Source of the DNA: Asterionella formosa
Lineage: Eukaryota
Assembly (NCBI GenBank): GCA_002256025.1
Contig: NKIB01000541.1
Span: 1-32,076 of the forward strand
Direction: 5' to 3'
Length of the DNA: 32,076 nt
A program made the position numbers and the translations under genes. This document shows, in pieces, positions 2,404-31,500 of the stretch (its first letter is position 1; every line of letters begins with the position of its first letter). Below the pieces are notes generated by a model. The model was not told the DNA's origin. It saw only the letters and a list, made by a program, of their open reading frames with translations, and did no database searches.

Positions 2404-3174
2404 GACGAGGATCCCATGTATACCGGTACCGGTAGTCAGAACGACGGAAATCGCTGTTCGATGTGGGTCTGATTTTGCTGATGAACAATGCAGAAGGCTC
2501 AAATGCTCGTAGTCAGATCATTCATGGCAGGATGGGAAAACTACAATGAGTGATGGATAGTATTTGGTGGCTCGTGGTTGCACACACTTCTAACACTGAA
2601 GCAACAGTATCAATCACACTGATGATGACCATAATTTACTCGCCCATTGAGGCCATCATCAGGAATCGTCCCAACACGCTCAAACCCTTTTCTCTTCCAC
2701 CTCTTTTTAAAACAAAATCTTACTGGAAATATGTACCGGTATACAGACACTGGTACCTGGTACCGTAGTCTATTCACAGGTCAGGCATGCAAACTTACCG
2801 CGCACACCAATCAAATTATCCCCGGCCGTAAATTCCGGTAGAACCTGGTAAGTACAATCTCATCTTTATGATTGGTTAATGAATGATAGACTACTATATT
2901 TAATTCATATACACATTTATACTACATACTATATATGACCGGTATATCATATGATCGATGAATGATGGTGAAAGAAGAAATTATTAGTTTCGTGTTGGAT
3001 GGAAGCCAAATGGAAACGACCCACAATCGACCAATTGAATCCACATCATCCAAAACTATATACTACAGTAGACTGTTCCTCAATACTACATACCTTTGTC
3101 TATGAGGATTGATGCTGCATCAGTTTTGAGGATATCTATTACATGCATCATATGTAACGTACAACAAAGGCAAA

Positions 3175-3433
3175 ATGTGGAAGTTTTGTTGTCAAACAAG
3201 AAGCTGTTGTTATTCTCGTTCTACGTTCATGGCCAAAATCGCGACAACGAGCCGATGTCTTTCTTCCACTGGAAACGAAAATAAGTATTATCGACAGATA
3301 TTTGCTGCAGCTTACAAACAGAATAACAAGCGACCCGACTGGCAAACTCGGTCACCAGAGAAACTGCACAAAAACGAGGGTTTATTGCACAATAACGACA
3401 ACAACAACGACAACGACAACAACAACAGCAACA

Positions 3434-3503
<70 letters not shown>

Positions 3504-6237
3504 CAACAACAATTTATTGATAAACACATCGCATAAATTGGGAATTTTGCTTCACCAAGTGTCCCAACTTGATCCACTACCTCCTGCTTGGGATTTACAA
3601 ACGACAGTAACCCAGAAAGAATCACGACAAATGTTACTTGATGAAACGAGACAGCTTATACGTCAATTGGGAGATTCTGTGCGGGGAGGAGACTTTGATC
3701 TATCTAACCACAAGCATAAAAGGGAGATTCACAACTTTCTCGGAGAATGCTTGAGAATATATTCGCACTTGCCAGGATCCTTCAAAGCCAGTCGAGATGT
3801 TTTGGTCATTATGCGATCATGTGATTTTGATTTACTACCAACCCAATGTGAGCATTTCGTTTTGGCAGCTGCCAGGGAGAAGAGATGGATGGAAGCTGCT
3901 GAATTATTTAGAACGAGAACAGACCCGAATGCGCATGGCTTTTCTCCAGTTCATATATCTGTGCGAGAACCAGTTGGCCTATATGCCATTGCTATGGAGG
4001 CGAAACTAAATGGCAAAGACGCAGCTCAATGTGTCATGGACGCTGTATTAAACATGTCAATGGTTTCTCCCACGGATCAAGAAAAATGTAAGTTACTGGA
4101 GACATTAGAACATTTATGGTACATTTGAAATTATACTTTTTGATTTCCCTCTCACAGAAATACACACAATCCCCTCGACGAAGATGTTTTGGCCGCTGGA
4201 GCTGCGCTTGGTCGTGCAGGCGAATTCCAATCGTTGCTCAAATTTCTAAGAACTAGCTACGACAAAGAGAGACTGGGTCAAGCTCTTGTTGCAAGTGCAA
4301 TGCACGCGTGTATCCTGTGCGCACAGAATGACGAAGCCTTGAATGTGTACAATGGCTCGGCACAGGTGATTCATGGGGATTGGCAGTGGGGCGGGCGAAT
4401 CTTGGATCCCATTTTTGCTGAATTGGCAATGCGAGCAAGCGGTGGAATGCCCAATAGAAGCGAGTTGGCCTTGAATCTACTGCAGCAAGCAAAAAAAGAC
4501 GGTCGAAAGGTAAGCGTCGAGGCGATTCATGGAGTTGTATCTGCCTGCGATTGGGATGGCCGTTGGGAAAATGCATTGTCAATTTTTCTTTCTATTTTCG
4601 AAGAGGAACCGCATTGGGTTGCTGATGGAGACGACCTGTTAGATAACTGTATCTACGATGTAGAAGGAAATGCTCGTATCAAGAAGGATGCCGTAGGGAA
4701 GATCGTAGTCCCTACCATGAGCGCGTGTAACCGAGCAGGTGAATTCGCGATATCCTTAATGTGTGTTGGCTTACTTCAGCTTCGTAACCATGATGATATA
4801 CATGGGTTAGATGAGAAGAGTGACATTGATATAGTGAGTGACCATCATCTTCCTTTTATACTTGGATTTGAAAACATGCAAGAGATTCTCGTTGTAACCA
4901 TGACTGCTTTATGTGGTCTACAGTCACATCATCTTGCCATTAAACTATACGAGAATGTGAAATGCATACATTTTGGTCAGCTTTCAATTGATGCAGAAGA
5001 ATGCTACAAACACGCAAAAAGCCTACCAATCGATGAGCATGGTTTGCTCTTTTCTAAAACGTGGGAGCGCACGTACACAAATATTTATCGATTTGCTGCA
5101 ATCGTATCGCGTTGGAACTCAGCATCTGAGGAGTACATGACAGCCCATACAGAACGCATAGTCATGCTAATTGCTCCTATCATGCGTGGATTGACTGCTG
5201 TCGGTCAGCCCAAAGCTAGTATCTTTTTTGCTGAACAAATAGAGGCAACCTTCTCAATCAAAGCGAAAGGAATCTTTGCCTCCATCTTTGAGATGGGTAA
5301 AACAATGGACAGTAACGCACAAAAGCTCCACAAGGATGACGGGATTTTGGCAGAGAAGATTCGTGCATATCACAGCATTGGAGCCAGTGATGATGCTGTC
5401 AAGCTCTTCCGAGATGTCACGGGCTCCGATATTGTGTCTGGTTTGAAATCCTGGCCTAAAAGCACAAATGCAGCATTAACAACGCTGCTCCATGTCGATG
5501 CGATCGACGATGCTGTCGAACTATTTGAAACGTTTGATTGGTCAAGTCGGGATCCTGACAGCTATTTGATAATTGCCCGAGGACTGGCTAAGTTGGAATT
5601 ATGGCCTTCGGTTATTGACATTTATGGCGTAGCAAGTGACGCAGGCTGCCTCACAGAAGAACTAGCCTTGCTAGCAATGAAGTCGATGGACCGAATCGTT
5701 CTTAAGGAATACGATGGATATGGCGAGATCAAGTTCTTTCGCGTTCGCTACATTTCGATGGCGATTAGCGAAATCGTCGGGATAAACGAACAAATATGGA
5801 TCAAGGAAAGGTATTGGGTGCTGAAGGACATGCTGTCGTTTGATTGCATTCGTTACTTAAATGGTTGGGACGATGATGTGTCATTAATTTCACATGAACT
5901 CGACCTTGCAATATCACAGTTTGAAGAATCCAGAAGAGCAGGATTGAAACCCAATGTCGAAGCTCTTGCTACAATTGTGAAACGCATCGGAAACGTTGAT
6001 ACATTAAAGCTATACGATGATGATGTAAGTCGATGGGAAAAGATTCTCTCGTCGGTAATTGCGGAGGCTCGTAGTACCACCCTTGCTACAGATCCAAGAT
6101 TCATCCATTGCGCCATGAGGGCGTGGCAAGTTCTCAAGAACGACAATGAATACATTGCCATGGCGGCTTTTGCAGTTGAACAAGGTGTGAATCTCAGCGT
6201 AGAGGACATAGAGATTTTGGGTGATGAAAAAGGCTGA
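3175..6237 (+). CDS. PPR/TPR-like helical-repeat protein, possibly organelle-targeted; exons 3175-4087 and 4184-6237
   Basis: Two long ORFs join in frame through intron 4088-4183 (GTAAGT...GAAG), giving DQEKYVLAAGAALGRAG. Degenerate PPR-like motifs (AIHGVVSACDWDGRWENALSIF; SAMHACILCAQNDEALNVY). The N-terminus is R/S/T-rich and lacks acidic residues. Confidence 0.75.
3391..3513 (+). repeat. Compound coding microsatellite (AAC/GAC)n-(AGC)19-(AAC)n encoding poly-Asn/poly-Ser
   Basis: Directly visible; the perfect AGC run spans 3439-3495 in frame with the 3175 ORF. Confidence 0.97.
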
Positions 6238-8380: not shown

Positions 8381-8544
8381 GACAGTGGGACACACGTGCC
8401 AAGCCGCCAACAAGAAATTGGCGGTCTATTTACCGAGCGATAGTACACTGGCTTTGCAAAGCAACGCTGAGGACGCGACATCATTATCGTCAAAAGAAAG
8501 CCATCAGGTATTTATAACCTGTATTAGTATATAGTCTACAGAGA

Positions 8545-9045
8545 CTACCAGGGTGACGGTATCTAGTACGATAGACTACCAGTACCTGGTACCGGTAATG
8601 GTAAAACAACATACCGGTACACACACCAATTCTCCATAGTGCCGGAGCTCCCTGTTACCCAGCATATGGAACCTGTTTGTAGTAAGTACCAGGTACTGGC
8701 CTGGAAACTTTTCTAATATAATATCTAAAAATGCATTTATAACCTTCTCTATTTTTTATATGTACACATAAGATATGATCCACCTGGTACCCTGGTACCA
8801 GGTACGGTACCAGGACGTACCTGGTACCAGGGTACCAGGTACTATAAGTTAGTACTACCCATTACTTTCCAGTCCTGGTACCAGGCTACCTGGTACGTAA
8901 GATAGAGCAGCAGCGTAATTTGAGTTTCTTTGAGTGTTGTGGGAGACACGGAACGAGACTACCGGTACCCGGTACCTGGTACCAGGTACCTGGCACCTGT
9001 CGTAGTATGTATCCGGTTTTGGCTGTACCAGGTACCAGGTACATA
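8545..9045. repeat. Dense array of palindromic TACCWGG/TACCGG units between divergent genes
   Basis: Examples: CCTGGTACCCTGGTACCAGGTACGGTACCAGG (from 8783) and TACCGGTACCCGGTACCTGGTACCAGGTACCTGG (from 8960). Confidence 0.9.
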
Positions 9046-9247
9046 AAAGAAGTACAAGTAGTTCACTTCGAAGATGTTCGAAGTTGATCTCCAAAGCAGC
9101 GACACTGCTTTCATTTTATGACAGGGACACTCCAACAAGCAAATCAACAATGTTACGAAGCGAAGTTGGCTCACAATTTATTAAAATTCTAAAGACGATC
9201 TTTTCGAACGAGAACTATAGCAAGGAAAGGACTACCAACGATCGAAC

Positions 9248-10150
9248 ATGACCGTGACAACGAAGGAAACAAACAATTCGCGAACCAATGATATCGAACT
9301 CGATACGCAAGCATTGCGCTTGTCGGACGCTGACTTGCAAGGCGAAAGAAAGATTACATTGTCGCCCACGTCGAACGAACATCAAGCTACTGAATGCCTG
9401 TATCAGCAGGGCACGGAAAATAAGTTTTGCCCATATCGCTTTGTTCCACTCGAAATGGGAGGTAACGGGGGGACGCATAAGCCCTCCACTGGATCTGCTA
9501 GTTTGATTGATGAAGTTCCTTTGGAAAAACTTAAAGAAATGACTGAGTTATTTTATGACAAGGCATTCCAGGATCCCACAGTGGATCAGTTCATTCGCTC
9601 TCACGACGATCCGCATGGAGAGCGATTTGCCAAGTGGATCCACCAAAAGTTAAGTGGATCAACAGTGTGGGATGAAGATCGGAGGAAACGAGACACTACA
9701 CCCGTGGAGGTGGCTGGTGGACGACTTGCTGTAGTTCATGACCGAAGTTCTGCACATGCTGCTGCTTGGTACAGTCCCAAGAGGCCAAAGCGTGATGTTG
9801 GTCGCCACTTCAATTTAGAGGAGTGTCGTGTGTGGATGCGTCTACATTTTTGGGCGTTGCGCGAGTCTGGGTTGGTGGAATCGAATCCATCTTTTGTCGA
9901 CTATTATGTTCGTTTCATTGGACATTTTGTAAGAGTCTATGAAGGGGCAGCACCTATGTTTGCCCGAGAAAGCTTCCGCTGGTCTGCAGACCCATCCAAC
10001 ACCAAGCTGTACTTGAATAATGGACGGAAGATGAAAGATGTACAAGGCCTTCTGCTTCGGCAAGCAATTGCTCAACTTCCTGAGCATGAAGCAAATGATT
10101 CTGATTGGCCCTACAATCAATCTCCTGAACATAATGATCAAGAATGGTGA
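9248..10150 (+). CDS. Truncated (2/2) haemoglobin-like protein with N- and C-terminal extensions
   Basis: LFYDKAFQDP..DQFI (B10 Tyr/CD1 region), W..QKLSGS..W, candidate proximal His (SSAHAAAW), and F..EECRVWMRLHFWAL resembling the G helix of group II trHbs. Confidence 0.7.
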   Translation: MTVTTKETNNSRTNDIELDTQALRLSDADLQGERKITLSPTSNEHQATECLYQQGTENKFCPYRFVPLEMGGNGGTHKPSTGSASLIDEVPLEKLKEMTELFYDKAFQDPTVDQFIRSHDDPHGERFAKWIHQKLSGSTVWDEDRRKRDTTPVEVAGGRLAVVHDRSSAHAAAWYSPKRPKRDVGRHFNLEECRVWMRLHFWALRESGLVESNPSFVDYYVRFIGHFVRVYEGAAPMFARESFRWSADPSNTKLYLNNGRKMKDVQGLLLRQAIAQLPEHEANDSDWPYNQSPEHNDQEW

Positions 10151-10294: not shown

Positions 10295-10876
10295 TCAACG
10301 AAAGATTGACCCAATTGGAATGAGTTCTGGACGAGGAAAGCCCAAATCCTCAGGATCTAGCTCATTTAGATTAGAGCTTTCTCTCCTTGGATAGCACCAA
10401 AGAATAATACGCTTTGAAAGTTTCTCTAGCTGGCAAAATTGAAAGTCATTTTTGTCATGTGACTGGACCATCAATGTTGCGCTCTCGTATGGAATGATTT
10501 CTTGCAGGCGGTATGTTACTTGAATATTATCACTGAAAGCATGCATTATATCTCGTTTTGGTTTTTCCACTGTAGGGTCTTGGCACAGGTCATCCCTTCC
10601 TCTCTTTGGCTTTGCTCTGGCTTTCTTTGATACTCCAGATTCTCCAACTTCGACTGTGTGTGATTGTTTCGGCCATCGCTTTGCACGATACGCTATGATC
10701 TCTTTCTCAAACTGTTTTCGAAGGATTTTATCGCCAAGTAAGACAATGAGCTCTTGCTTGTGTTCCGGCACTGAGTGAAACCAAGCAGTGTCTTGTCGGC
10801 GTAGGTGAATCAATACCTCGACCGTGTGTGTCGTTCCGACAATTAGCTCGAGCGAAACTCGGGTTTTTTGGTTCAT
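10295..10876 (-). CDS. Uncharacterised protein, SLX4IP/UPF0492-like N-terminal domain (tentative)
   Basis: Clean ORF from ATG 10876. VLIHL..QDTAWF...HKQELIVLL and IQVTY resemble, from memory, metazoan SLX4IP VDLHI...KDTSWF...KKEEVCLLL and FQITAY. Confidence 0.5.
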   Translation of the reverse strand: MNQKTRVSLELIVGTTHTVEVLIHLRRQDTAWFHSVPEHKQELIVLLGDKILRKQFEKEIIAYRAKRWPKQSHTVEVGESGVSKKARAKPKRGRDDLCQDPTVEKPKRDIMHAFSDNIQVTYRLQEIIPYESATLMVQSHDKNDFQFCQLEKLSKRIILWCYPRRESSNLNELDPEDLGFPRPELIPIGSIFR

Positions 10877-11793
10877 CGAATCAGCGATGCAAGCATCAAC
10901 AAGATCATTCAAATTGGCAGATGGAAAAAAGCGCGAAGAGTCGTTAATAGCGAATGGAGGCGTGCGCCATGGTCACAGCCACTGGTTGGGACGCGCGATG
11001 CATTGACAAGCACCCCGGGATTTTCTGTACTGGTATGCTAATTGTCCTTTGACATGTGAGTCTTGTACGGTTTGGAGTACGTAGAATCGACAAAAAAACA
11101 CAATGAAGATGCAGTAGACTACCGGTACTACCAGGTACTGGCGCTAAGATAAAGCCACTGGTCAAATGTAATTTTGTTTTTTTACTCCAAAAGCAAAAAT
11201 GCATGTCACACCACCGTTGGTAACAGTTTTTGGCGAGAACGTCGTATCGCATGATGCGCAATAATTGATGTCAGTTGACATTTTCCTTGTGGTTTTGTCC
11301 TCGCTGCGTTGGGCATCATTCCGAATTAATTACTAAGAAACAATCATTTGATTACCGTGTGATTATTTGAATATATTTGATTGCCAAATCAAGTGCTTTA
11401 TTTACTACGAATGAAATATTTATAATCCAAATAAAAAAGGCTTGTATAATTGAAATAAATACACTACCGGTAGACGCTTTTATACGCGGTTGGGTGTCAA
11501 AGTCCGAGAGAGTGAATCATCATATCTAGCGATCTGGTACCGAGGACGATGACCGAGGGCTTTTGAAAGCGAAATAAACAAGTATTAACACAAGACTTCT
11601 TTGGTTAGTCCTAATTTGGTAGCCCCTAACAGTTTTCGATAAGTTGAATCAAGTAAAATTGAGTTCCAACCCATGTAGATTTATGTTTTTATGATTGTAT
11701 TTTTGCATGTGCATTTTCTTTGTAAAATGAAATACCCAGCGATGCTGGCTTAAAATTGATGAATCATATCATTGCTCGTCTCGTTTATGCTTT

Positions 11794-12900
11794 TCAAGAT
11801 TTACCCTCGTCTTCATCTGACGACACCATATCTGGGGCTCCGAGCTCAGGATAGAATGCCTCGGGTTTGTCATGGAATGTGACTCGTCGACTCTTTCGCG
11901 GAGAGTCTGGAGAGACAAGTAGGATCGGCTCTAATTGTTCCAGCGGTGGCGAAACACATCGTTGCCTCTTTGAAACTGGTTCCGCAGATATTACATCGTC
12001 GAAGGAACGCTTCTTCAGAATGCCACCTTCGACACCACCAGTAAGAACGTTCATTCTCGTATTGATCTGAAAAATACTGTCCCTGCTTCGTAGGGGAACA
12101 ATATTCGGAATAGGGGCAGGTTCATCCACTTCCTTAACCATGGCGCTGAAACCAACTGACAAGCACTTCAGGACGAAAGCAGGTGCCCCGGGCCCCCCAA
12201 ACCGAATCAGAGACCCTCTTCTGACTCGATGTGGAATGACCATACCGCTGTTAGGTGTGCTTCGGACTCGAACACCATTAACGTAAGTCCCATGAGATGA
12301 TCCAGAATCGACAACGTAGCAAGAACCATTGGGATGATGGAAGATCAAGGCATGGCGCCGAGAAGATGTTTGGTGAAGCAGTTGAACATCTGAATTAGGA
12401 GATCGGCCGATACGCAAGAAAGGTCGGTTTGTCAGGTCCACTGTGGAATGAGAGCCAAGAGCTTCGCAAACAGGCTCAAGACGAGAGTCCCCACGTGCGG
12501 GAACAGCCCATAGGGGCGGCTCTAACAACGATGGTGTGGCTCGGCATTGCATGTTGTTAAATTGTGGGAGTCGTCCTGTGGGTGCAGAAAATTTATTAGT
12601 GCTGTCATTATTGTGTGGCGACCTATCGCTCCTGGCGACAGCGGCAGTTGGGCTGTTCTTGGAACGGCCTCGCTGCTGCGTTGAGTCTGTCTGTGTGTTA
12701 GAGTTGGGCACAGACAGACATGCCAAGCTGCCAGACGAGCACGTGAGAGAATTGAGTTCGCAAGCTGAAATATCAGACAATGTGTGATGTTTCCTTGGGC
12801 ACGGGGTTGAGCAGCCATCACGGACGATTGCACGTTGACCTTGAGGGATGGAGCCGCAAAGGCTTACATCGACAGTGACTTTGCCGATGGAGAGGGGCAT
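11794..12900 (-). CDS. FHA-domain protein (NIPP1/kanadaptin-like)
   Basis: IGRSPNSDVQLLHQTSSRRHA...VVDSGSSHGTYVNG...IRFGG; upstream PPLWA motif; C-terminal RRVTF, a PP1-binding RVxF-like motif. Confidence 0.92.
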   Translation of the reverse strand: MPLSIGKVTVDVSLCGSIPQGQRAIVRDGCSTPCPRKHHTLSDISACELNSLTCSSGSLACLSVPNSNTQTDSTQQRGRSKNSPTAAVARSDRSPHNNDSTNKFSAPTGRLPQFNNMQCRATPSLLEPPLWAVPARGDSRLEPVCEALGSHSTVDLTNRPFLRIGRSPNSDVQLLHQTSSRRHALIFHHPNGSCYVVDSGSSHGTYVNGVRVRSTPNSGMVIPHRVRRGSLIRFGGPGAPAFVLKCLSVGFSAMVKEVDEPAPIPNIVPLRSRDSIFQINTRMNVLTGGVEGGILKKRSFDDVISAEPVSKRQRCVSPPLEQLEPILLVSPDSPRKSRRVTFHDKPEAFYPELGAPDMVSSDEDEGKS

Positions 12901-13652
12901 ATTGAAATTGATTAGGTGCGACGATAGGTAGAGGAGACGTAAAACAGGAAAAAGCCTATATAGTCTGCTGTGTTTGACACGTCACAAGAGAACCTCCGAA
13001 GAAATTGTAAAGAGCTCGGAAAATGCACTCGGACGCTGGTCGGGACAAGCCCTTTAAACAGCGCTACAAGTGACAATTGATTTTCCTCGCCGTGGTTATA
13101 CTTCCATAATAAACGCCAGAACGATCCAGGGGGGGGGGAGGAGGATAGAGAGAGAGAGCGCTGTAGTAGAACGAGTCTGTTTGCAGGAGGAAAAGAAACA
13201 ACAGAAGTCTCGTTGTTTCCAACTACGGAATGCGTGTAAACAATTTATGGTCCCAGCGTGAAAAGCAGCAGGTTTTTACATGAATGCAACAGCACCTCTT
13301 CTGGCATGTAGAATTCTACCAGAAACTTTTTTATTGTAGAATTATTACTATTGGCTACGCATTCATTTTGGAATAGGAGTTATTGGTGACCATAACGTTT
13401 AATGTACACCTTGGCACTCGCTGGTGATAATATTAGTGTTGTCACACTACCTGGTACCAGCTGCCGGTACTGTCTGTCACATGATGGACAGTCGGCAAAT
13501 GAGGTGAGAGTGGTAAAGTGAATACTAGTTAGGAAGTAGTCGCGTCTAAGTAGTAAAAGTTAGGAAAATGCTTCAGACTGACTGGTCATGCCCACCTCCA
13601 TCTGGTCTGAGACAAAGGGGAGTGTAGGGGAAAAGAGTCTTGCATTGCCATT

Positions 13653-15095
13653 ATGTCGTCGACGACTGGAGACCTCTCTGTCCCCATCGGCCTTGCGGAC
13701 GCTGCTCCAATTTTCCCTCCTCGTCCAAATGCCTTTATCACATTGCTGACCACAGGCGACTTCCTTGCTGGGGCGCAAACGCTGCTCTACTCCATCAAGG
13801 TAAGTCTTGTTTCTCCTCCGACCTTGAGTCGTCTTTGTTGAATGTTAATTTGAGCTACCGGTAGAGGGGATTGGACCTGCCGGTGCAGGTACAAGGGTTC
13901 GTTGCAGTCGCGCGAAGGTTGCATTTTCTGTGCCGCGTTGACAAGAACACGATTGCTTGGCAATGCGAACTTTGCTCGTGCCGCATTGCTGTCCCTCCTC
14001 ATTTGTGCACCCTCCACGCGGTTCCAGCAGAAAGCCCTGCCCAAGAATACAACTGATGGCTACCCGCCCGAGATAGTTGTTCTTGTAACACCGAACATTT
14101 CCAAAGAAATCAAAGCAGCCCTTCATCCTGAATTGTTTACTCGGATCCTTGAGGTGGATCCTATCTCGTTTCCGGAAGATTCGATTCAAGCCAAGCAGGT
14201 AGTCACCAGCCACGTCGAATCTTGGGGAAGCCAAGGAACTCTTACCAAGCTGCACATCTTTAGACTTGAACAGTACAGTACACTGGTTTATATTGACGCA
14301 GATTGTCTAGTCCTCAAGGACGTGAGCCATTTGCTCGACCTCGGCAAAGCCACTGCGAAGGACGCCCTTTTAGGTGCAGCTTCTGATATATTCCCTCCCG
14401 ACAAATTCAATGCTGGCGTTCTCGTTCTTCGGCCGTCCAAGGCCATCTTTGAAGACATGATGGCACAGTCGCTACTTCTAACAACTTATGATGGCGGTGA
14501 TACAGGCTTTCTCAATGCTTTCTTTTCTGACTGGTTCACAAATATGCCACAAACCGCGAGGCTCAAGTTTGGGTACAACGCACAGCGATTTCTACATCAT
14601 TGCACTTATGACAAGCAACCCAACTACTGGGACCTCGGTGTGTGTCCTGATCTTCACATACTGCACTTCAGCTCATCACCGAAGCCATGGGACATTAAGC
14701 CACCAATTTTGACGTCCTCAAGTGCTCAAGGACATCTTGACGAAGCAGACGTTCAAGCCGTGGAGAAAGTATCCAAAACTTCAGAACTTGAACAGCTGTG
14801 GTGGAAATGGTATCAACAAAGTCAGAACTATGTTGGTAAACTTAAGAAGAAACGCCTCGAAGTCGATAAGCCCACCGCTAGGTCATGCGCTAGAGGTCGA
14901 GAGATTCCGGTCAAGTCTAAGAAGGCTCCAACTGAATCGCACAAGCTAGTGGCCTCACGCTACAGAGAGCTTCGAAAAGAAGGTTTGGACGCCAAAAAGG
15001 CGATGGAGCAGGCACAATTGGAATGTGGTCAGGATGATGCGAATAACCCAAGTGCAAGTTCCCAAATAGCTGCGATGTTTGGTATTACATCTTAG
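13653..15095 (+). CDS. Glycosyltransferase family 8 (glycogenin/PGSIP-like); exons 13653-13799 and 14028 (or 14031)-15095
   Basis: AFITLLT..DFLAGA in exon 1; TKLHIF, YIDAD (DxD), FNAGVLV, TYDGGDTGFLN, YNAQ and LHFSSSPKPW in exon 2. Donor AAG|GTAAGT at 13800; CAGCAG acceptor at 14025-14030. Confidence 0.92.
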
Positions 15096-17038: not shown

Positions 17039-17285
17039 ATAGCTTTAACATACTATACGATTTGATTGATAATTTATTCTTCCACCCACCCCCCAGACAA
17101 CACACCAGCATTCACATCTCGATCGACAATGGCAGGGCGAGAAGCGCATGCCACAGCTCATATAGCATAGAAATTTCGTCGTGACTCGAAAGTGGATCAG
17201 CTAAGCGCAACTCGACTGCCGCAGAACCCGAAAGAAGGACACGGACCGAATCCGGAGTTTGGGAATGGGACGCACACATTACTTA

Positions 17286-19960
17286 CAGCATCTCCACCGC
17301 ATCGACCAAATACCAAAGCCAATTGCAGTTGAAAATATCAATACACGTCACTGGTCGAGAATTTTTTATCAATAGTCGAATTTTTCATGTTTTTTCCCAC
17401 TGCATCGACCAAATCCTAGAATAGTCAAATCTCGCGCCGAAACTTTTAGCGAATAGAAATAGCACTAGAATGTTGTTAAATGTGTATCGTTATATTGGTA
17501 AACCCGATTACCGGTACTACCAATAAGAAAATGATGGGACTGTGTGGTTGTATGGGCGGTACCAGGGTACTCATACATATCTGCCTGATGAAATGAGCAA
17601 CGATAGTGACTCATCAGATGACGACCACTCCTACACTTCCGTACATAGCGGTTATACATATACAGGAAGAAAACGAGAAAAGGCAACCAAAGGAGGAGGT
17701 GGAGGATCAAAGGAAGTTGCTTGGCTAGTCTGTACCTGTAGTTTTTTGAATATTAGTAGCATCACATTTCCTGTAAATTCCTTATTCTTACGCAGCTAGT
17801 ACTACGCCTATTTAAACTGCCCATCAAAAACTAATATGACTATCCATTTGTATATTGGTATTCTAGAACAGAGAAACCCTTCCGTTTTTCTAATTAGCTA
17901 CTAGAGTGATAGCTTTCTAATCAATCATACTAGCATCGCATCAATCATACTAGCATCGACATGTAATCTATATATATTAATCATTTTTATAGCGCATTCT
18001 TACTATTCTATTTCTAGAGTTGCTGTCATTGCGCTCCATGGCCCATATAAGGTGGGGCAGTGGAAAGGGTTGTGTGGAAGTAGTTAAAAAAAATTGTGGC
18101 AGCTTCATTCTTGGTTCTCTTCTCTGTGACTGCATTTTTTGTGTCAGCCAGAGAATAGGATGGTGAGTGTGGATTAGGTTAAAGATTTTCCGTTTGGCCC
18201 CAATTCTGGTGATTCAATTTGAAGTCTCCATAACTATTGGTGATTCCAGGAGGGCTTCCAACTCATTGTTTTTTTGTCGTTGTCTTCATTATCACAAAAT
18301 TATTGCTTTGAGCAACCCATCCAGCTCAGGCGCAATTTCTTCATCAGTGACTTCTTCATTTCTCTGTCTTCTTCTTTACTCTTGTTGATGTCTGGCATAT
18401 CGCAATTCTTGTATTCTTCTGCTTCTTGCACTATAATAGCGCTCAGGGTAGCTAGTGAAAGAGTTATTAAGGTTCTTCATTTCTTTTCTCTTGTTAATGT
18501 CTTTACCTGGTTCTTCTTCTGTTTGCATTGCGTTAATTCCATTGCTGTGAATCCCCCAATTGTGTGTAGTATTTGTGGAAAACGCCAAATCAACATCCAT
18601 GCAATTGCTGGTTTTCACTGCTCCTGCATTAATCTTTGTTTGCTTTTCCATCTCCTCCTCTTTCTGCATTCTCTTTCTGTCGGATTTCATTACCATCTTA
18701 TGGTGCTGTCCCACTTGTATGAGTTGTTCTTTCTTTGCCTGGTTGGCCGCTGGTATAGCGCCTTTCGTCATGATGAATCGGTCGTTTTGAGGATTTATTA
18801 ACTATCGGGACCCGGAGGTCCCTGTAGCTTATGTACCACTAGATTCTGTGATCAGCGCTGTAGTACAGTAGTAGTCTTTCTTAAACTCGCCTTTATACTT
18901 GGCAAAAAAGTGTGACAACGACATGTTATCTATATTATTTTTCTTCATTTGGAATCATCTATTACATCAAAATCATCAGTGGTGGATGACAGGTGGGACA
19001 GTGGAGTACTCAAAGCACTTGAATTATTGAGATGCAATTGGATCACACCTAATCCCTCCTTCACTTTGTTCCTTAAACGACATTGCCTTTATTGGCGTGA
19101 AGCCCTTCGTTAAATGGCGCAACTCTCTTGGATACTTTTTTTAATCCTTCAGCTGATTAATCGATCATCGAAACTGTAAACTGTTACACAATATACCCAT
19201 GGCATAACTTCACATAATGCTGAGCAAACTTGAGCGTAATGTTGATCTGCAGGCAAGGGAAGGAGATATTAATACTAGCCAGGGACATGCAGCAGTCTGC
19301 CAATGATGATACATCATGGTACACGAGGAACAATGCTGCCTTGACAAAACTCGCACATCGCTATCGATTGTCACTCTTGACAGCAGCGCCAAAATATTCC
19401 AACTTTGGTCTTGTCTGAAATCGACGATGAATCATCCTCGTTGGCTACTGCTCCTGCTTCTGCTCCTACTCATGTAGCATCCTGCATTGACGCCAATGGA
19501 TGACGATATCATCTTATTGGGACCGTCAAAGACTTGAAGGACAACATTCAGCAAGATGTCATATTTTATGCATGAGATAGTTTTATTGATAGCTGCCGGT
19601 ATTATTCAAAGGTATTTGTACTTAAGTTTATTATTTTTCTTTATCAAGAGAGTAAAGTAAATGTGTATTGTAAGCCTTTGTGTATCAATTAAACAGTCGA
19701 CGTTATGTTGCCGGCGCAAGCCATAATCTAGACCAATAGAAATGCTTCCTTTGTTTGGCTATGGTCGGAGTCTAATCGACCAAATACCTGATATTTGGTC
19801 GATAAGGGGGTCATTCTCAATCAAGACCAAAGCATATTTGGTCTTGGTCGATGCGGTGGCTAAAATATTTTTGCTTTTTCGACCAAGACAACACATCATG
19901 ACGTGTAATGACTCCCAACTCCAATTGGCTTGGTATTTGGTCGATGCGGTGGAGATGCTC
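17286..19960 (+). mobile_element. Non-autonomous PIF/Harbinger element with unrelated internal sequence
   Basis: TIRs CAGCATCTCCACCGCATCGACCAAATACCAA / TTGGTATTTGGTCGATGCGGTGGAGATGCTC; TTA TSD at 17283-17285 and 19961-19963. Ends are homologous to 20133-23050. Only the transposase N-terminus (MSNDSDSSDDD, 17593) remains. Confidence 0.92.
17920..17959 (+). repeat. 20-bp tandem duplication ATCAATCATACTAGCATCG(C/A)
   Basis: Directly visible, two copies. Confidence 0.9.
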
Positions 19961-20513
19961 TTAGCAACGAACTCAAAAGCCATTTACGATATTTAGCTTT
20001 AATGTTTGGCGCGCTATTCTAGTATACTACGGTTCGTATTAGCGCTATTCCTAAAGAATTCTTATGACCCTACTCGGTCTAAAGATGAGAAAGACAAAAC
20101 GGACGAAACAGTAATTGTGTCGAAGTTACTTAGAGCATCGCCACCGCATCGACCAAATACCAAAGCCAATTGCAATTGAAAATATCAATACACGTCACTT
20201 GGTCGAGAAATTTTTTATCAATAGTCGAAATTTTCTTTTTTTTCCCCACCGCATCGACCAAATCCTATATTAGTTAAATCTTGCGCCCAAATTCTTAGCC
20301 AATAGAAATAAAGGTAGACTGTAGTTTCGTGGGTATCGATTTTAATTCATGAAGTATTCGCATACATACCTTATTCTTAAACAGCTAGCAATACTCCTAT
20401 CTGGTACTGCCCATCAAAACATATTACAACTATGTACTTGAATATTGTTCGTAGAGAATTGTGGCTTCTTTATTATTACCAATAATTATGACTTTTGTTT
20501 CGACACAGCGAAA

Positions 20514-21773
20514 ATGAGCAATGATAGCGACTCGTCAGATGACGATCGCTTCTTCCACTTCCGCAAAATGCGGAAGCAAAGCGAGAAGGCCAAGCAAGAA
20601 AGAAACAAGGGAGGAGGATCAAAGATGGGAAAGGCATCCAATCTCAATCGTTTTCGGACAGACTATGACAAGCTTTTGAAAAAGGATTATTTCGGTGAAA
20701 ATCCAATTTACTCGTCAGCAATGTTCAGGTGGCGCTTCCGGATGAGACGTTCCTTGTTTGAGAAGATTCTTGATGATTTGGTTGCTTCAGATTCTTACTT
20801 TTCTCAGAAGAAGGATGCCTTGGGTTTACTGGGATTTTCGCCACACCAAAAACTTACCTCGGCGCTCGCATGTTAGCCTATGGAACATCAGCTGATCAGT
20901 TGGATGATTTAACAAGGATGTCAGAGTCAACAACACTCAACAATTTGCAACACTTCTGTAACGCAATAATCAACAGCTATGGGAAAGAGTATCTTAGAGC
21001 TCCAACCAAAGAGGACCTTGAGATGATTTTACGTTTGCATGAAGGAAAGGGTTGGCCAGGGCTTCTTGGTTCATTGGATGTCATGCATTGGGAGTGGAAA
21101 ATCTGTCCCAAAGCACACAGAGGAGCATATCAAGGAAAAGAAGGAGTGGCAACAATTGTTTTGGAAGCTGTGGATGATTGTAGACTTTGGTTCTGGCATG
21201 CATGGTTTGGAATGCCTGGGGCAAACAATGATCTTAATATTTGGATCGTTCACCGTTTTTCCATGATTTGTCAGCTGGAAGGACTCCAAAAGTACAGTTT
21301 GCCATCAACAACTAACAACACAATCTGGGGTATTATTTGGTTGACGGAATCTACCCAAATTGGCATATATTTGTCAAGACAATTTCAGAGCCACAAGGTC
21401 CAAAACAAAGTTAATTCTTGATTCGTCAGGAGGCGCAAGGATGTCGAGCAAGCATTTGGAGTTCTACAGGCCAGGTGGAGAATCCTTGCACTTCCATGTA
21501 AAGTTTGGTCAGTGGATGCTATGAACAGTGTAATTATTGCATGCATCATTTTGCACAACATGATCATAGAGGATGAATGGGAAACTGAAAATACAAATGA
21601 ATATCTATTTGACAATATTCAGGATGGATATTTGGTTGACAACGTGGATCATGACAATGTACACATTTCTTGATTTCAAGAATATTAGAATGAACTACAT
21701 GAGTGAAGGTGAGCACTATCAATTGCGTAACAATTTGATTGAGCACTTGTGGATTCAAAACGAGAACAAATAG
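20514..21773 (+). pseudogene. PIF/Pong DDE transposase pseudogene
   Basis: DYF..FRWRFRM, QKL..AL/MLAYG, GLLGSLDVMHWEWKICP, TIVLEAV, FGMPGANNDLN, YYLVDGIYP, RKDVEQAFGVLQARW, CIILHNMIIEDE, LRNNLIEHLW. Frameshifts near 20866, 21241 and 21433, plus in-frame stops. Confidence 0.95.
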
Positions 21774-21893
21774 TAGATAATTACTTGATTCTAGATTTAT
21801 TTTTTTAAGTCTGTAAAGTACAAATTCTAGATTGGCAATAATGAAAGGATTAGTGTAATGTAATGTCACTACAATCAAACTAGTTTAATACTC

Positions 21894-22647: not shown

Positions 22648-23300
22648 CCTGACAATGATGATTGTTGTTTTATGGTGTCGACTCAATATGATGTATACAC
22701 CACACCAAGATCACATTGGCCTATAGAGTTCTACATGAAGAGACTATAGTGAATGTACTGTAATTATGTATGCACTCATTGAACTATAAATGTTAGGTTG
22801 CCAGCGCGAGCCACAATCTAAACCAATAGAAATGCTCCTTTTATTTGGCTACGGTCGGAGTCTAATCGACCAAATACCTGATATTTGGTCAATAAGGGGG
22901 TCATCCTTAATCAAGACCAAAGCATATTTGGTCTTGGTCGATGCGGTGGCTAAAATATATTTGCTTTTTCGACCAACACAAGGCATCATGACGTGTAATG
23001 ACCCGCAACTTCAATGGGCTTGGTATTTGGTGGATGCGGTGGCGATGCTCTTACTTCGGTAAGATATAAACTACACGTACAAATATCATACCGGTAGTTC
23101 CTTTTGTGAACATTTTGATGATCCGACAAAATAGAAGCCATCATCATCAACACATCATGTCCCTCACAATGAAGACCCTAGTTTATAAGAAGTAAATAAT
23201 GATGCAAGTCCTCATTGAACTTCTCAGTACTTATCAAAATCTTTGAATCTTACAAGCCCCGCATTCATCAACCGCGTCGTTTTGCCCGTTATTTATAAAG

Positions 23301-25896: not shown

Positions 25897-26815
25897 GGTG
25901 GGGACATCAATACGTACATCCGGTCGTAGCTTGAGTTCAGTTCTACAAATGCCGGCACCGCTACTTGGTACCAGGTACCAGGTATTCCACTAAATATCCG
26001 TGGAATATCGGGACTGCCTCTCTCTGATGGTTGAAAACAGTCGCAGCGATTCTTGATTTCGACTCCTTCGATTTTCTCCGGCTCAGTTGCCCTACATATT
26101 GTACGCCTCCTGCCTTGCCGAAAGGCAAGACACACCCAAGATGGTAAGAAAACATACGAGGGTACCCTGGTGTCAGAGTGTGTCTGATAGGCTGTTGATG
26201 TCGACAGGTGTCCGAAAGCTATTGAGGAATGTCTAAAAATGGAAATAGGCAGGATTTATAAAGCAAAATAATATGCAGACGAGTCGGTTTGACAAAGATC
26301 TTGACCGGTCATTCCAGGGCAGCACTGGAATTCGCAAGAAGAGGCACCATATATTTCAACAACCTGGTACCTGCAAGTTGTGGTCATTTTGCCGAAAATG
26401 AAATTAGGTGCCGGCAGGCTCTCAAGCTCGATTCCAACAGTAATAATATTACCTCGACATTTAGAAAATTTCTAATGGTTTTGCACTGGCCCATTCATTT
26501 CAATTATATCAAAATCAAATTTTGAAGAATGATTTTCTGAAAAACCAGGTTTCCGCATTGGAGAAAATTAGAGAGTAGGAAACCCCCATCTCGCTCGAGG
26601 AGGCAGTTTTCGGAAAGCAAGCAAGAAGAGTACTTATTTGTCGATGAGAACCGTTTCTCTATGCCTCCGAAATTGGCGTTGCTCTTAGCCTACTGGTGTT
26701 GCTGATGATTAGTAGTGGCTGCCAACATTTTTCGGAAAATCTGTTTTTTTAGTAGCTAATGAAGCAACAATCAAATATGTCAGGACCTACAAAGAATATT
26801 GGTGGCTCCCATCTT

Positions 26816-27308
26816 CTATTTCCTTGTCCTGGTGGCCAACCAATATGCAGTAACCCAGTTGCTGTGTACTTCTTGGTGTATATGTTTCCGAAATACCTCA
26901 AGAGGAAATCCTTGATACTCCTCTCTGGTCTCACGGAGCTTTTGAGGCACCATGATGTCCTGCTTCCCATCTCTGATGTCAAGCTTGAGAAGATTTTGAG
27001 CTTCCAAGAACCCATCCCAATGAGAACATGAGAATCCTGATTGATTTGTGATGATGGGAAGACGAGGGTGCACTAGCCTATCATGGGCAACTGCAGCACT
27101 GTCCACAATAGCTTTATCATGATAATGTTTCTTGAAAGCTTTCCGGAGGCTATACAGGTTTTTTCTGAATTTTTTGTACTCCACCTCCCTGTATTCATCG
27201 CGCATTTCATAGAAATCCTTTGGTCCTATGTTATGCTGGAGCTTTCCTGCCTGAATAGCTATCCTTTGTCAGGAGCTGCTTTGCAATCTCCCATGGTGTG
27301 GTAGACAT
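26816..27308 (-). pseudogene. Transposon accessory ORF with a duplicated helical motif, frameshifted
   Basis: ATG at 27308: PWEIAKQLLTKD...(frameshift)PKDFYEMRDEY...FRKNL, then W...AQNLLKLDI..G....PQKLRETREEY...FRKHI. Confidence 0.65.
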
Positions 27309-27543
27309 TTTATTTCGTCTTGCTTATATACTGGTACCGGGGTACTATTATTGACTATGATTGTGGTGCATTGTTTTCAAGCAAAGAAGCCATGGTCGTA
27401 TTTGAAAAGTTGCTTCCGTCGTGTATATATAGTAAAACTAACAGGGTACTAGAATTACATAATTTCTATTGTGCAAAATGTAATTCATGAATGATACCAA
27501 TTTACTCTAGTTGTTTAATCTGATAGAATTCGTTTTGCATCTC

Positions 27544-28529
27544 TTAAACATCAGAAATTGGATGACCATCCTCCATTTCATACTGGACAATGACAAAGAC
27601 AGCCTTGAAGACAACTTTGTGTTTTTCTACACCATGCCGGAATCGTTCTGCTAGGATTTTAAAACTTTTGATCTGCCCTTTGAAAGTTTTGTGCCGCGCA
27701 CGAGCGCTTTCCTTAAAATCATTTACTATCGCACTATCCAAGGGATTGCGGGTGCTGATCTGTTGCTCTCCCCTATACCCTTCATCGCCAACAGCTCTCT
27801 TTCTAGCAGCGATTTTGGTATTGAGACCACCTTCGTTGCGAAAGATAGTGATGTCATGATGCCCTGCCGGAAATGGACCATTCATCAAGACCAATTGATT
27901 ATTGAATATTGAAATACCAAGCTCATAGGCCAACCCAGCCTGGTTGAACTTTTTGGAGTACCAGGAGGCACTTGGTTGGGTCCGAGGCTCATTGATGCGA
28001 CAGTGTGTTCTATCCACTGTAGCTAATAATGAAGATCTCATCAGTTTGTTGGTTGTCGTCAAAGTGCCAAATAATCTATAATAATGGGAGTATCAAAATA
28101 CCAAGGAAAAGAAATGAGAAATGGCGCACCAATAGTTCGCAATTTTGTTTTGTTATGATCAACAGCACTGACCTCTTGTCCCTCCTTAAGACCTTGAATT
28201 GCATGCACGTACACCCAAATCCATTTTCGTGCTGTCTTCTCAACCATTTCTAATGATCCAGCAAATTCCTCTTCAATCTTGTAGGTTCTCCACCAATGTA
28301 GAGCCATCATGAGGTGGACTGTGAAGGGATTGATGATACGAGCCATGTCAATCTCCGTTGTCTGCAAATCCATGAAGATTTTTGTGAAACTCTCCGGACT
28401 AGTTCCAAAATGTGCGCAGAAGCGCCTGAGGTTAGTGGCTGCGCAAGTTCTCTGAGTAGACCTCTCATCAAATCCAACAAAATCAAGGCCCACAAAGATG
28501 AATTCGAAAGCAGAAAGATAGAGCACCAT
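27544..28529 (-). pseudogene. DDE superfamily transposase pseudogene with probable intron 28076-28172
   Basis: N-terminal HTH region (RRFCAHFG, ALHW, EKTARKWIW), TVD(R)THC..EP, YSKKF..AGLAYE, NGPFPAG..DITIFR, GDEGYRG, ARARH(K)TF..IK.F.IL..RFRH. Intron GAG|GTCAGT...TATAG|ATT. Confidence 0.88.
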
Positions 28530-31500
28530 GGTGTTATCAGAGCAAGAATTTGGCTCCCTTGAGCGATGTTTTGAATTATTCAGCTGAGTTGTGAAATTTT
28601 TGATGTTCGCTTGATGATTTTTACTGTCTGTATCTATGATATGCATGCAAACATATGTTCTAAAGTGTGATTTTTTTCAGGTACCACATGTTAAGTCATT
28701 GCATATTGGCGGTTGAACAACAACAAATTCTATGATCATTGCTCTGTCTGTGCCTCTGACCCCGACGGAATCTAGCCCTTGGTAAAAACCCCAAATTTTT
28801 TGGGATTGGGGGTTTTTGGAGGGGGGGGGGTTGAGATTGGGTGAATTGGGCAAATGAGTTTCACCCAAACCCAAAAATAGTTCCAGCCAATTCGAATTCC
28901 AGCAGAAAAGTGTTCAAAATAATCATACGACGAATGAAAGATAACCGTTGTAAGAGCTGGCAAGCATATCTATTTGAGTATTAGATCCTCATGCATGAAT
29001 ATCTGCAATGTCTAATTCTTCATTCTTTAGGTGGATTTACCGCAACTTGCTGGTACCAGGTAGTATGTGGTATGTTGCTGCCAAAAAAGGGTACATGTTG
29101 AGGCAATTTCCGCTCAACCGATTGTCTTGCCGCTCAGGTACGTTTAAGTAATATTTAAGCTCTCTGTAAATTGTTAACAGTAATACACATAAAAAAGGTA
29201 AAACAAGCATCAAACACATGAGAATGATTGTAGCATTCTATATCAATGAAAATTGAACATGATGTTTGGAGCAACCAAAGTATGTTATGCAATGAAATAA
29301 GTAGCATCAAATGAGAAATAGAAAATTTTGTTTTCGGTTTAAAAAAAATTAAAAATATGAGTTTCAGTGGAGACATGTGCATTGTAGTATATGCATTGTA
29401 GTACTTACACAGGCGAAATTCCATCACACAATTGAAGAGCAAAATAAAACAGACATGACGAAAAAGCTGTACCCAATTGAGATCTGCATCGTGATGTAGC
29501 ATAGATGATCTGGTTGCTGCAACCATGAACATCACTGTAGTAGCCTGACTCAAGGAGTTGCAGTCCTTCCGCCCACCGTCATTGCTTCCTCCAACCAAAC
29601 ACCCTTGATCATCATTCCATCCAATCCATTCTGATTGAGTATGATCGCCAGGCTGCTCCAACACTATTGACTCCCTCTAGCTGAATATACGGAGCTTGTA
29701 ATATGAACTCCTAGCTAGTAGAAATGTAGCAAAGCGCGTTAGTACAAGAAAAGCATTGCTTGGCGGCATTATTTGACATCATTGTCAACAACTATTCAAA
29801 TCAACAATGGCACAATGCATCTTCAAAGAGTTAGTCATTGATAAATACATTGGTTCTTATGTAGATAGATACAATCAAATCAAAATGACAGTGCGGAACG
29901 ACAAACAACGATGGAAGCGATCAAAACAGACCATGGAAGCAATCAAATATGAAATTTCGATAAATAGGATCTACAATTCACACTCAGTGATTCACTGTTG
30001 CACTCACCGATCCGCTTCAACTAGCATAACAAGCAGCAGGCGATGGGATCAAAGAAAGACAAACATTGCTGTTGCAAGCCCGAATACAGCAATGGCCGCA
30101 GGCAGGAGGATAGAGTGAGAATTATAATTGTGAGGACGAAATTGGGCATACGGTACGTAAATTAATCAATATATGTGAAAAATATAATTTAATATTCTGG
30201 TCTCGTAAAAATAATACCAAGTCTACAGCAACAACATTACAACGTGTTAAAAGCAAGCATGAAAGTTTAGCTTAAACCATGCATGGTTGTTTCAAGTACC
30301 ACGTAGTTAGTACATATGTAGGCTAGATGACTACTACATACTGGTGGTAGAATATCCGTTAAGGATCATCACATGCATGACCAGAGGAAAAACTTGCGAC
30401 CAACATCAGATATATACCGATATCACTGTTTGTCCAAAGAATTATGGACAATGCGGCTATGTGAATCCCACGAGAAGACAAGCAATCCAACAACCAACCG
30501 CATCCGTTTGACAACAAATGGCTTCTAGCTGGCGTCATCACTGAACTGATTTCGCTTCAGACTGGGTATGATGGACAATGATCAGCATAGTGAAAGGTGA
30601 ATTTCTCAAGTTAGTTTTCAGGCAAAGAACAAAAACGAGGTAAATACTAGGTTTATTTGAATCAAATCTGCAGAGTGTATAGAATGGTTTCCGTAAGTAC
30701 TAGACCCCTTGCCAATTCCGGCAATCCCAGGACTGGAAAACCGAGGGGCAATTGGCGCAAATTGTCTTGCCGAAATGCAAACATAAGAAATATACAAAAG
30801 AAATTTTAATTATGGGAAATATCTGACCTTTGGCAAGATTTTATGTGTCGATTGGAAATATACGAAATTTTATTTTTATGATGGGCTATAGAAAGCTAAA
30901 AACGTCATTTATGCTTTAGTTTTGGGCAGTAGGTAAGCGAATGGCATGATGATAGCTAGTTTCTGAATTGCCTCAACAATTCCTTTCTCGGTGGCTACTT
31001 GGCTTCTTGTTTACATGTGTACTCGACTGGGATGGCACTCCAAGGGTGACCGGCACAGGAGCCTCAACACATGTATGCTCACAGGCACTCTAATCACTAA
31101 TTTAACATACCCCCTTCCAAACTACTATTAAGCTTCTCAGGTTTGTTAATTGACTCAAACTTCTCTCCTCCTCCTTCTTTGTCCTCACTGGCTGCTGTTC
31201 ACTACCATTCCCTCTTTCCCACCAGGTTATGAGCTAAAGATTTTTCCTTGAAAGAAACAAAACTGTTGATTGTTAATTCGATTAAGCTCTTGGTGAGGAA
31301 TTTAGGCATCAATTTCTCATGTCATTAGTCATGCATTTTTCGACTGACAAGTCTTTCAAATTGATCATACTATTGGACTTATTAAGGCTTGTTTCACATT
31401 GGATTTTTAACTACAAAAGGAGGCAATTATTTTTTTCACCCAGGGAGGTTTCCAAAGAATGTTTTGGTTGCCATATAAACTAGAATATAATTCCACTTCT

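Follow-up and report, generated by a model that had tools for sequence, protein, structure and literature searches.

TA-bounded palindromic words in non-coding DNA of a freshwater pennate diatom: candidate transposon excision scars and probable landing site of a Harbinger-type element

The footprints that transposons leave on excision are usually met as rare, local scars. Sleeping Beauty canonically leaves cag or ctg between two TAs (PMC5224488); the 5' break of mariner elements is placed 2–3 nucleotides inside the element, the Mos1 end starting TA-CCAGG (PMC2642840). Stowaway/mariner excision is described as leaving a small duplication together with short end sequences, and Harbinger elements are reported in the same source to excise precisely (PMC4561436). 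Within the PHIS superfamily (PIF/Harbinger-ISL2EU-Spy), insertion produces 3-base duplications, and the NuwaI group duplicates CWG (PMC4482050). Both kinds of system are relevant to contig NKIB01000541.1 of Asterionella formosa, whose 32,076 nucleotides are referred to as the window. Its non-coding DNA repeatedly carries palindromic words of the form TACC-N0-3-GGTA (the units), singly and in arrays, and a PHIS/Harbinger-type transposon on the minus strand (26374..29049; DDE domain, inverted ends) interrupts one of these arrays. The units resemble the Tc1/mariner footprints as described for Sleeping Beauty, Mos1 and Stowaway-type elements, in which two TAs likewise enclose a few end letters and only the junction varies. 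They differ in being dense (the non-coding part of the window has about 2 in each kb), stacked in long arrays and reused as targets by another superfamily. No description of such density, stacking or target reuse by a second superfamily, nor of these words in diatoms, was found in the open-access literature. Membership in the footprint class is incomplete, as a source element and an allelic series are missing. The reading that we favour, and to which we give about an even chance of being right, is that the units are TA-bounded transposon excision scars that breed more scars.

Expected counts in the window were obtained from 100 dinucleotide-preserving shuffles, units were located with the regular expression TACC-N0-3-GGTA, and 21 open reading frames (ORFs) of at least 120 amino acids served as the coding mask. 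The original prediction, made from the letters of the window alone, had described palindromic units recurring in non-coding DNA, densest at 8545–9045 and nearly absent from coding sequence, and the counts bear this out. TACCWGGTA occurs 16 times against 0.14 expected (shuffle maximum 2) and GGTACC 27 times against 3.27 (shuffle maximum 9). The scan returns 32 units, namely 11 copies of TACCGGTA, 16 of TACCWGGTA and five longer forms (TACCCGGTA, TACCCTGGTA, TACCAGGGTA twice and TACCGGGGTA); the gap between TACC and GGTA is 0 letters in 11/32, 1 letter in 16+1/32 and 2 letters in 4/32. Sixteen of the 32 lie within 8583–9041, the densest stretch of the window. Outside the masked ORFs are found 30/32 units, 24/27 GGTACC and 16/16 TACCWGGTA, and the two 'coding' units (2421 and 2427) precede the CRAL/TRIO gene's first in-frame ATG (2403) by 18–31 bases. 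Counting k-mers by annotation class, a check that had been proposed and was run here on the window, places the strand-collapsed 6-mers CTGGTA, GTACCA, ACCAGG, CAGGTA, ACCTGG, CCGGTA and GGTACC among the commonest of non-coding DNA, where they are 4–10 times denser than in ORFs. The mixed orientation and the 6/7/8-base steps are equally real, since Tandem Repeats Finder reports period 7 or 8 with 72–100% matches, indels up to 22% and steps of all three lengths mixed. The letters outside the units are biased as well, the left neighbour being G in 16/27 cases and the right neighbour C in 19/27.

Metagenome contigs were scanned for GGTACCWGGTACCWGGTACC, which gave at least 124 stretches and, from these, 123 loci (L001–L123). 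The 76 loci below 50% GC (189 kb, 4 duplicates dropped) form the low-GC set, and 43 loci at or above 50% the high-GC set. Low-GC loci carry many scattered units, high-GC loci mostly one tandem array. Between the metagenome loci and the window, no DNA similarity other than the units was found. One locus (L014) codes for an endonuclease V whose closest named relative is that of the pennate diatom Seminavis robusta (54% identity), and further loci code for eukaryotic proteins. In ten long loci, 206/210 listed units lie between ORFs. Clustering was assessed on low-GC loci no shorter than 2.5 kb. There the 10 intergenic intervals that hold the seed of the scan contain 131 units in 17,323 bases (7–8 per kb), the 21 other intergenic intervals 2 units in 9,216 bases, and stop-free frames of 150 codons or more 10 units in 62,085 bases. 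The units therefore belong to two or more diatom lineages, and they are non-coding and strongly clustered. Runs of a single unit prevail in both data sets (10/13 runs in the window, 240/365 in the contigs), and adjacent units differ in their middle letter in 78/213 cases in diatom-like contigs against 9/93 in high-GC tandem arrays. An all-against-all BLAST of the 123 loci and the window retained 81 rows, mainly arrays and tandem repeats, among which only the pair L049/L063 is allele-like. Its members are 90% identical and differ mostly by unit blocks in a complex manner, the arrays being the most variable part.

The most informative evidence comes from the truncated forms. Sequences were cut at every TA, and the strings between successive TAs were counted against dinucleotide-preserving shuffles. 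In the non-coding DNA of the window (100 shuffles), the observed and expected numbers are 10 and 0.06 for CCAGG, 9 and 0.13 for CCGG, 6 and 0.05 for CCTGG, 32 and 15 for C, and 27 and 13.6 for G, so that the TA-bounded unit forms are enriched 70–170-fold. The low-GC contigs (187,459 bases after loci containing N were dropped) allow a finer count, given here as observed/expected: CCAGG 301/0.97, CCTGG 272/0.9, CCGG 42/1.9, CCAG 78/4.2 and CTGG 73/4.2 among strings of five and four letters; CGG 55/9.7, CCG 49/9.2, CCA 35/13.7, TGG 40/12.7, C 809/253 and G 862/257 among shorter ones; and CCAGGG 20/0.23 and CCCTGG 12/0.2 among those of six letters. Their mirror forms show no enrichment (CAGG 7/4.1, CCTG 8/4.0, CCT 7/15.4, AGG 8/16.1). 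The resulting asymmetries are pronounced: CCAG and CTGG together occur 152 times against 15 for CAGG and CCTG (binomial p = 1e-29, 47 loci), CCA and TGG 76 times against 15 for CCT and AGG (p = 5e-11), and CCAGGG and CCCTGG 32 times against 0 for CCCAGG and CCTGGG (p = 5e-10). Enriched strings of at least three letters begin with C, CC or CCA and end with G, GG or TGG, any extra letter standing in the middle. Random loss of one letter from the palindrome would yield CCAG, CTGG, CAGG and CCTG equally. The pattern does not suit random decay, slippage or a protein-binding site. It fits the trimming and end-joining of two TA-CCA ends, as in mariner-type excision.

From these observations we infer a transposon as the agent, a TA duplication made by it, and a feedback loop. 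Each unit would be a small insertion at a TA: between two TAs, at most three letters of CCA... stand on the left and at most three of ...TGG on the right, and the two parts meet in the middle. This would yield TA-CCGG-TA, TA-CCA/GG-TA, TA-CC/TGG-TA and shorter or one-letter-longer forms. The agent would be a cut-and-paste, TA-duplicating transposon of the Tc1/mariner type with ends CCA...TGG, cut 2–3 bases inside the element. Every scar would retain the old TA and add a new one in a G-TA-C setting; were the element to prefer TAs in that setting or to hop locally, scars would attract further visits, and GGTACCW arrays with a random A/T in the middle would grow. Slippage and inverted duplication would later remodel the arrays, selection would purge units from coding DNA and let them accumulate in upstream and intergenic DNA, and a CWG-duplicating Harbinger, of the family of the 26374–29049 element, would take the arrays as landing sites. 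A scar origin is supported by the confinement of variation to the middle, between a constant TA-CC and a constant GG-TA. The feedback fits because the units are clustered, neighbouring units share a TA and middle letters are mixed. Exact units and one-substitution variants number 573 and 228 in the contigs (41.6 variants expected) and 16 and 13 in the window (3.75 expected). The variants fall evenly on all nine positions, outer T and A included. After chance is subtracted, exact units exceed variants about 3:1, which indicates that production is recent or continuing.

The location of the units invites a functional interpretation. Every unit of the window either precedes a gene, lies between genes or falls in one probable intron, and 8/9 of the 5' intergenic regions hold at least one. 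The divergent spacers 2502–3175, 8413–9248 and 12900–13902 are among them, and units also occur in tandem spacers; the convergent 3'-3' spacers hold none, in only about 620 bases in total. Other protists have over-represented palindromic promoter words, such as TGCATGCA in apicomplexans, which are likewise exact palindromes of 8–9 bases, highly enriched upstream of genes. The units might be bound by a transcription factor or chromatin protein, selection maintaining them as homotypic clusters in promoters, divergent ones among them. The excess of exact units over one-substitution variants and the presence of the motif in two or more diatom lineages that show no other DNA similarity would agree with this. 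In contrast to the protist words, the diatom units have a variable centre, TA-sharing overlaps, truncated forms and a distance to the start codon that is not fixed but ranges from 18 to about 665 bases. A dimeric binding site is ill suited to a gap between TACC and GGTA that varies from 0 to 2 letters, and forms that have lost one half-site are enriched 17-fold and strand-asymmetric. Moreover, arrays are the most variable part of the allele-like pair, most other intergenic regions in the diatom contigs lack units, and units also lie within transposons (17509, 17560 and 27335 in the window). As the origin of the units, binding is therefore unlikely in our estimate; a protein-binding or chromatin role is possible as a secondary one, but it leaves the variable centre and the truncated forms unexplained.

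Several observations weigh against the scar reading. The string rule stands mainly on contigs of other diatoms, and in the window the corresponding asymmetries (4 vs 1 and 3 vs 0) point in the same direction but are non-significant, the numbers being too few. In the low-GC contigs, the strings CC (57/54.6), GG (61/56.7) and CG (53/43) show no enrichment, contrary to what the rule predicts; CCATGG, the full 3+3 product, is rare (n=3); and TA-GC-TA (181/53) as well as GTC/GAC are enriched outside the rule. The cleanest extra string in the pair L049/L063 is CAGG, of the rare class. The window and the 123 loci yielded neither a TA-duplicating CCA...TGG element nor a Tc1/mariner transposase. Inverted ends that begin with CC next to a TA comprised arrays, the 2.7-kb element of the window, a small CAG-duplicating element in L076, and the unconfirmed stretches L066 2033–2861 and L045 2819–4088. 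Contigs of public runs, one RNA run (X12) and three DNA runs including X6, were compared with the window; among the best-supported indels listed there was no clean pair of TA and TA-unit-TA alleles. At 25984 and 26366, which an X6 contig joins through CCAG to give TA-CCAGGG-TA, the window has an insert of 381 bases that begins TTCCAC, not CCA. Finally, 63% of adjacent units have the same middle letter, where a random choice would give 50%, and a perfect 25-base palindrome in the main cluster is impossible by independent insertions, so other processes must also build arrays.

Replication slippage is one such process. Taken alone, it would make the units a plain 7-base microsatellite of GGTACCW that changes in length, and the shared middle letters, the period-7 arrays and the related contig pair that differs by unit blocks speak for it; heptanucleotide microsatellites, too, are length-variable, head-to-tail arrays of period 7. 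They differ from the diatom units, which can be isolated, are mixed in middle letter and length, and have asymmetric truncated forms. With 10/13 runs in the window being lone units, slippage alone is insufficient. Lone units exceed expectation about 100-fold, neighbouring units carry opposite middle letters in 37% of cases but in only 10% within high-GC tandem arrays, and neither the mixture of 6-, 7- and 8-base steps nor the asymmetric truncation fits. Slippage as the sole cause is largely refuted by the isolated units and barely credible to us, while it remains a contributing process.

Another possibility is that the arrays are themselves mobile, small non-autonomous elements carrying them at their inverted ends or as subterminal repeats, and that the clusters in the window are decayed or nested copies of such elements. 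The loci L022 (200–645 and 895–1146) and L028 contain a repeated element of about 160 bases whose inverted ends are three GGTACCA plus GGTYGATTT, with an identical outer boundary in 3–4 copies. There the array is part of the element's inverted ends, so some arrays may move along with elements, which is a further point against scars as the whole account. The clustering of units would agree, as would the perfect inverted repeat built of units at 8782..8840, with 25-base arms (8782–8806 and 8816–8840) and a 9-base centre, in which an irregular CCCTGG unit is mirrored by CCAGGG. As single-stranded DNA this repeat folds at -32 kcal/mol (z = -8.0), and 0/200 shuffles fold equally well; it is either an inverted duplication or a tiny foldback element. 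Mobile arrays leave the lone units (10/13 and 240/365 runs) and the prefix/suffix string rule unexplained, and the L022/L028 contigs have 53–54% GC. We hold this account to be improbable for the units at large.

The scar reading assigns a different role to the transposon at 26374–29049. Its transposase (ORFs 28059–28646 and 27544–28062) matches PF13359 DDE_Tnp_4 at E = 1.2e-9 (score 38.5 bits, cut-off 24.8), and its inverted ends are CAAGTTGYGGT. On the left, GGTAC + CTG forms the left half of an interrupted unit (26366..26373); on the right, CTG + GTACCAGGTA forms the right half of the interrupted array (29050..29062). The junctions read GGTAC-CTG-CAAGTTGTGG ... CCGCAACTTG-CTG-GTACC (outer letters CAAGTTG...CAACTTG), so that CTG at 26371–26373 and at 29050–29052 flanks the element as a direct 3-base repeat. 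Taking out the element with one CTG leaves GGTACCTGGTACC, an ordinary array piece. Owing to the palindromic target, a duplication of TA or of GTAC would also account for these junctions. In the two complete copies seen, that in the window and a 90-base relative in L009 with the flanks TTG/CTG, the middle letter to the left and to the right of the element is T; no paralogous empty site was seen. A direct CTG repeat is favoured, because with inverted CCW ends an A on one flank would be paired with a T on the opposite flank. The landing was not random, since only 11/964 CWG sites of the window lie within GTAC-CWG-GTAC. Near-identical ends adjoin GGTACC arrays in L063 and L009; as the metagenome loci were retrieved through arrays, this neighbourhood is biased there, while the copy in the window is free of the bias. 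The 464-base element at L076 1979–2442, with inverted ends GAAGAGACRGTA and CAG on both sides within a TA-C-CAG-G-TA unit, seems from its flanks to be a second family that duplicates CWG at the unit centre.

The 26374–29049 element is a CWG-duplicating, NuwaI-like PHIS/Harbinger transposon that inserted into the central CTG of a pre-existing array unit. With NuwaI, as far as its description in PMC4482050 goes, it shares the PIF/Harbinger-type DDE transposase, inverted ends, CWG duplication and two ORFs. NuwaI is described mainly from animals. Most autonomous members have a Myb/SANT ORF, which was not detected here: the second ORF (26816–27205, 129 amino acids) gave 0 Pfam matches up to E = 1 and no Myb/SANT domain, and it may be partial or spliced. 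The strong preference for the extended palindrome GTAC-CWG-GTAC is absent from the NuwaI account in the available text of PMC4482050. A polyA RNA contig spans 27709–28578 of the transposase gene (27544–28646, minus strand) with a 97-base GT..AG intron (28076–28172) removed, and the element may for this reason be active. Depth bins over it (26453–29110) are 0.98–8.79 in the three DNA runs, which corresponds to a single copy. GTAC-CWGCWG-GTAC, the double-duplication scar of a CWG element, was not found among the common spacers. Contigs of the three DNA runs also contain a joint from 26392 to 29037, with sides of only 19–21 letters, and there is a backward joint from 29062 to 25962.

The original prediction had made this element (as 26370–29053) the source of the units: it would duplicate TA and have the ends CCTG...CTGG, each unit being a TA plus a few end letters left by insertion and imprecise excision. 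Under this reading TA stands on both flanks, the ends CCT and (reverse) CCA could join by their last letters to give TACCTGGTA, and 4/5 of the CAAGTTGYGGT-family ends seen are preceded by TA-CC. The spliced transcript of the transposase gene would also suit such an agent, and a 2-base duplication (AT, in ISL2EU) is documented for the superfamily in PMC4482050. Against this, T on both sides in both complete copies marks a direct CTG repeat rather than inverted ends, one L009 end is preceded by TC-CC instead of TA-CC, and a related end in L049 follows TAA-CTG without CC. An element of this kind would offer CCT ends as often as CCA ends, yet strings of the CCA/TGG type outnumber those of the CCT/AGG type about tenfold; the element is present at single-copy depth, and Harbinger elements are described as excising precisely (PMC4561436). 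We consider this version highly unlikely and the element probably a user of the arrays, not their maker. Thus, the earlier idea of transposon scars survives in its TA junctions, the prefix/suffix rule and the clustering, but not in its choice of source.

With more doubt than confidence, the scar reading can be extended to a mariner-like, TA-targeting ratchet that would shape promoters across pennate diatoms, the arrays serving as landing pads for a CWG-duplicating Harbinger. The latter role is suggested by the scar centre being equal to the extended palindromic target of the Harbinger. Other strings of the low-GC contigs look as if they were scars of several other TA-targeting families: TA-CTCGAG-TA occurs 12 times against 0.13 expected, with the longer forms CTCGGAG and CTCCGAG also present, and TA-CAG-TA and TA-CTG-TA 88 times each against about 19 expected. 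CTCGAG forms number 0 in the window. If the ratchet existed, excision repair would be a major writer of upstream DNA in diatoms and transposon excision a measurable force in the promoter evolution of major primary producers. Its scars would be among the most over-represented non-coding words, self-propagating and steering a second transposon family, and the cruciform-prone palindromic arrays near start codons might be co-opted for regulation. Such a ratchet would also offer a natural system for studying the target choice of CWG-duplicating Harbinger elements. Arrays could serve as hypervariable strain markers, and their proximity to start codons could affect expression or transgene design.

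The main cluster (8545..9045) contains 16 units and the partial forms TACCAGTA, TACGGTA and TACGTA, and lies between the divergent PIP5K gene (ATG 8413, minus strand) and the ORF 9248–10150. Further positions had been listed at ~94, 2421, 2734–2766, 11120–11140, 11464, 13448, 13857, 17509, 23089, 25967–25984 and 27331, and all of them hold a unit or a one-letter variant. At about 94 this is AACCGGTAC. Two overlapping TACCGGTA (2421..2434) form the pair upstream of the CRAL/TRIO ATG, and TACCGGTA with TACCTGGTACC (2734..2764) occupies the divergent intergenic region 2502–3175. At 11120..11137, TACCGGTA and TACCAGGTA lie 208–225 bases upstream of the ORF 10295–10912 (minus strand), and a lone TACCGGTA follows at 11465..11472. 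The interval between the FHA gene and the GT8 gene holds TACCTGGTACC at 13448..13458. A lone TACCGGTA at 13856..13863 is probably intronic, because an RNA contig skips 13798–14025 (GT..AG), within which it lies. TACCGGTA and GGTACCAGGGTAC (17509..17569) are located in Harbinger copy A (17286–19960), upstream of its first ORF, and a lone TACCGGTA at 23089..23096 stands 212 bases upstream of the ORF 23301–24755. The array TACTTGGTACCAGGTACCAGGTA (25962..25984), 73–88 bases upstream of the ATG of the GNAT gene (25896, minus strand), is the left part of one array later split by insertions, of which the 381-base insert (25985..26365) is apparent from read depth and the X6 contig. TACTGGTACCGGGGTAC (27329..27344) lies between both ORFs of the 26374–29049 transposon.

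Other mobile DNA is present in the window. Two diverged Harbinger copies with a Plant_tran domain, A (17286–19960) and B (20133–23050), have ends that are about 90% identical, with TTA on either side of each copy. In two DNA runs, contigs connect 17271 with 19975; the X6 letters show one TTA at this point, a clean empty site, which makes copy A an insertion polymorphism. Depth bins over these TTA-type copies (17115–23117) reach 58–447 against 1.4–12.7 in bins of neighbouring genes, indicating a family of many copies. At the units 17509 and 17560 the alignment of A and B is poor; B has CTGGTAC where A has CCGGTAC, and there is no clean presence or absence. The 667-base depth bin that holds the 381-base insert (25786–26452) shows 103–423 in the three DNA runs against 0.66–8.8 beside it. 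The insert carries an array remnant (26161–26171), and contigs of other runs break recurrently at 26169, 26216, 26290, 26329 and 26366; it probably consists of nested small elements. Beyond the window, L050 (1–181) and L055 (3184–3359) share a repeat that contains two tRNA-like GGTTCGATTCC boxes and is bordered by (CTA)n at one end and by (TAG)n at the opposite end; it may be a short element of tRNA origin.

By its gene content, the window is nuclear DNA of a pennate diatom. The GC content varies from 38 to 51% along it, and the ORFs are long with few interruptions. Pfam identifies proteins of eukaryotic and plastid-related kinds, namely PIP5K, CRAL/TRIO, FHA, GT8, CCB2/CCB4 (a cytochrome b6f assembly factor) and GNAT, together with a weak HPAT match. 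The closest named relatives of the PIP5K protein come from pennate diatoms, first Fragilaria crotonensis (50% identity), then Cylindrotheca and Seminavis. A search for relatives of this protein in the metagenome contigs matched 35 stretches, 0 of them true relatives. Public sequencing runs in which the stretch is present carry the labels freshwater, lake water or algae metagenome. Contigs of the RNA run X12 end before the arrays (e.g., at 10943, 13117 and 25803), although such contigs do not mark transcript ends. The ORF 3175–4128 includes a CAA/CAG/GAC repeat of about 120 bases (3387–3527) that encodes a glutamine-rich tract. At position 12514, in the FHA gene, the window has G where 4/4 runs (one RNA, three DNA) have C, which reflects either a strain difference or an assembly error.

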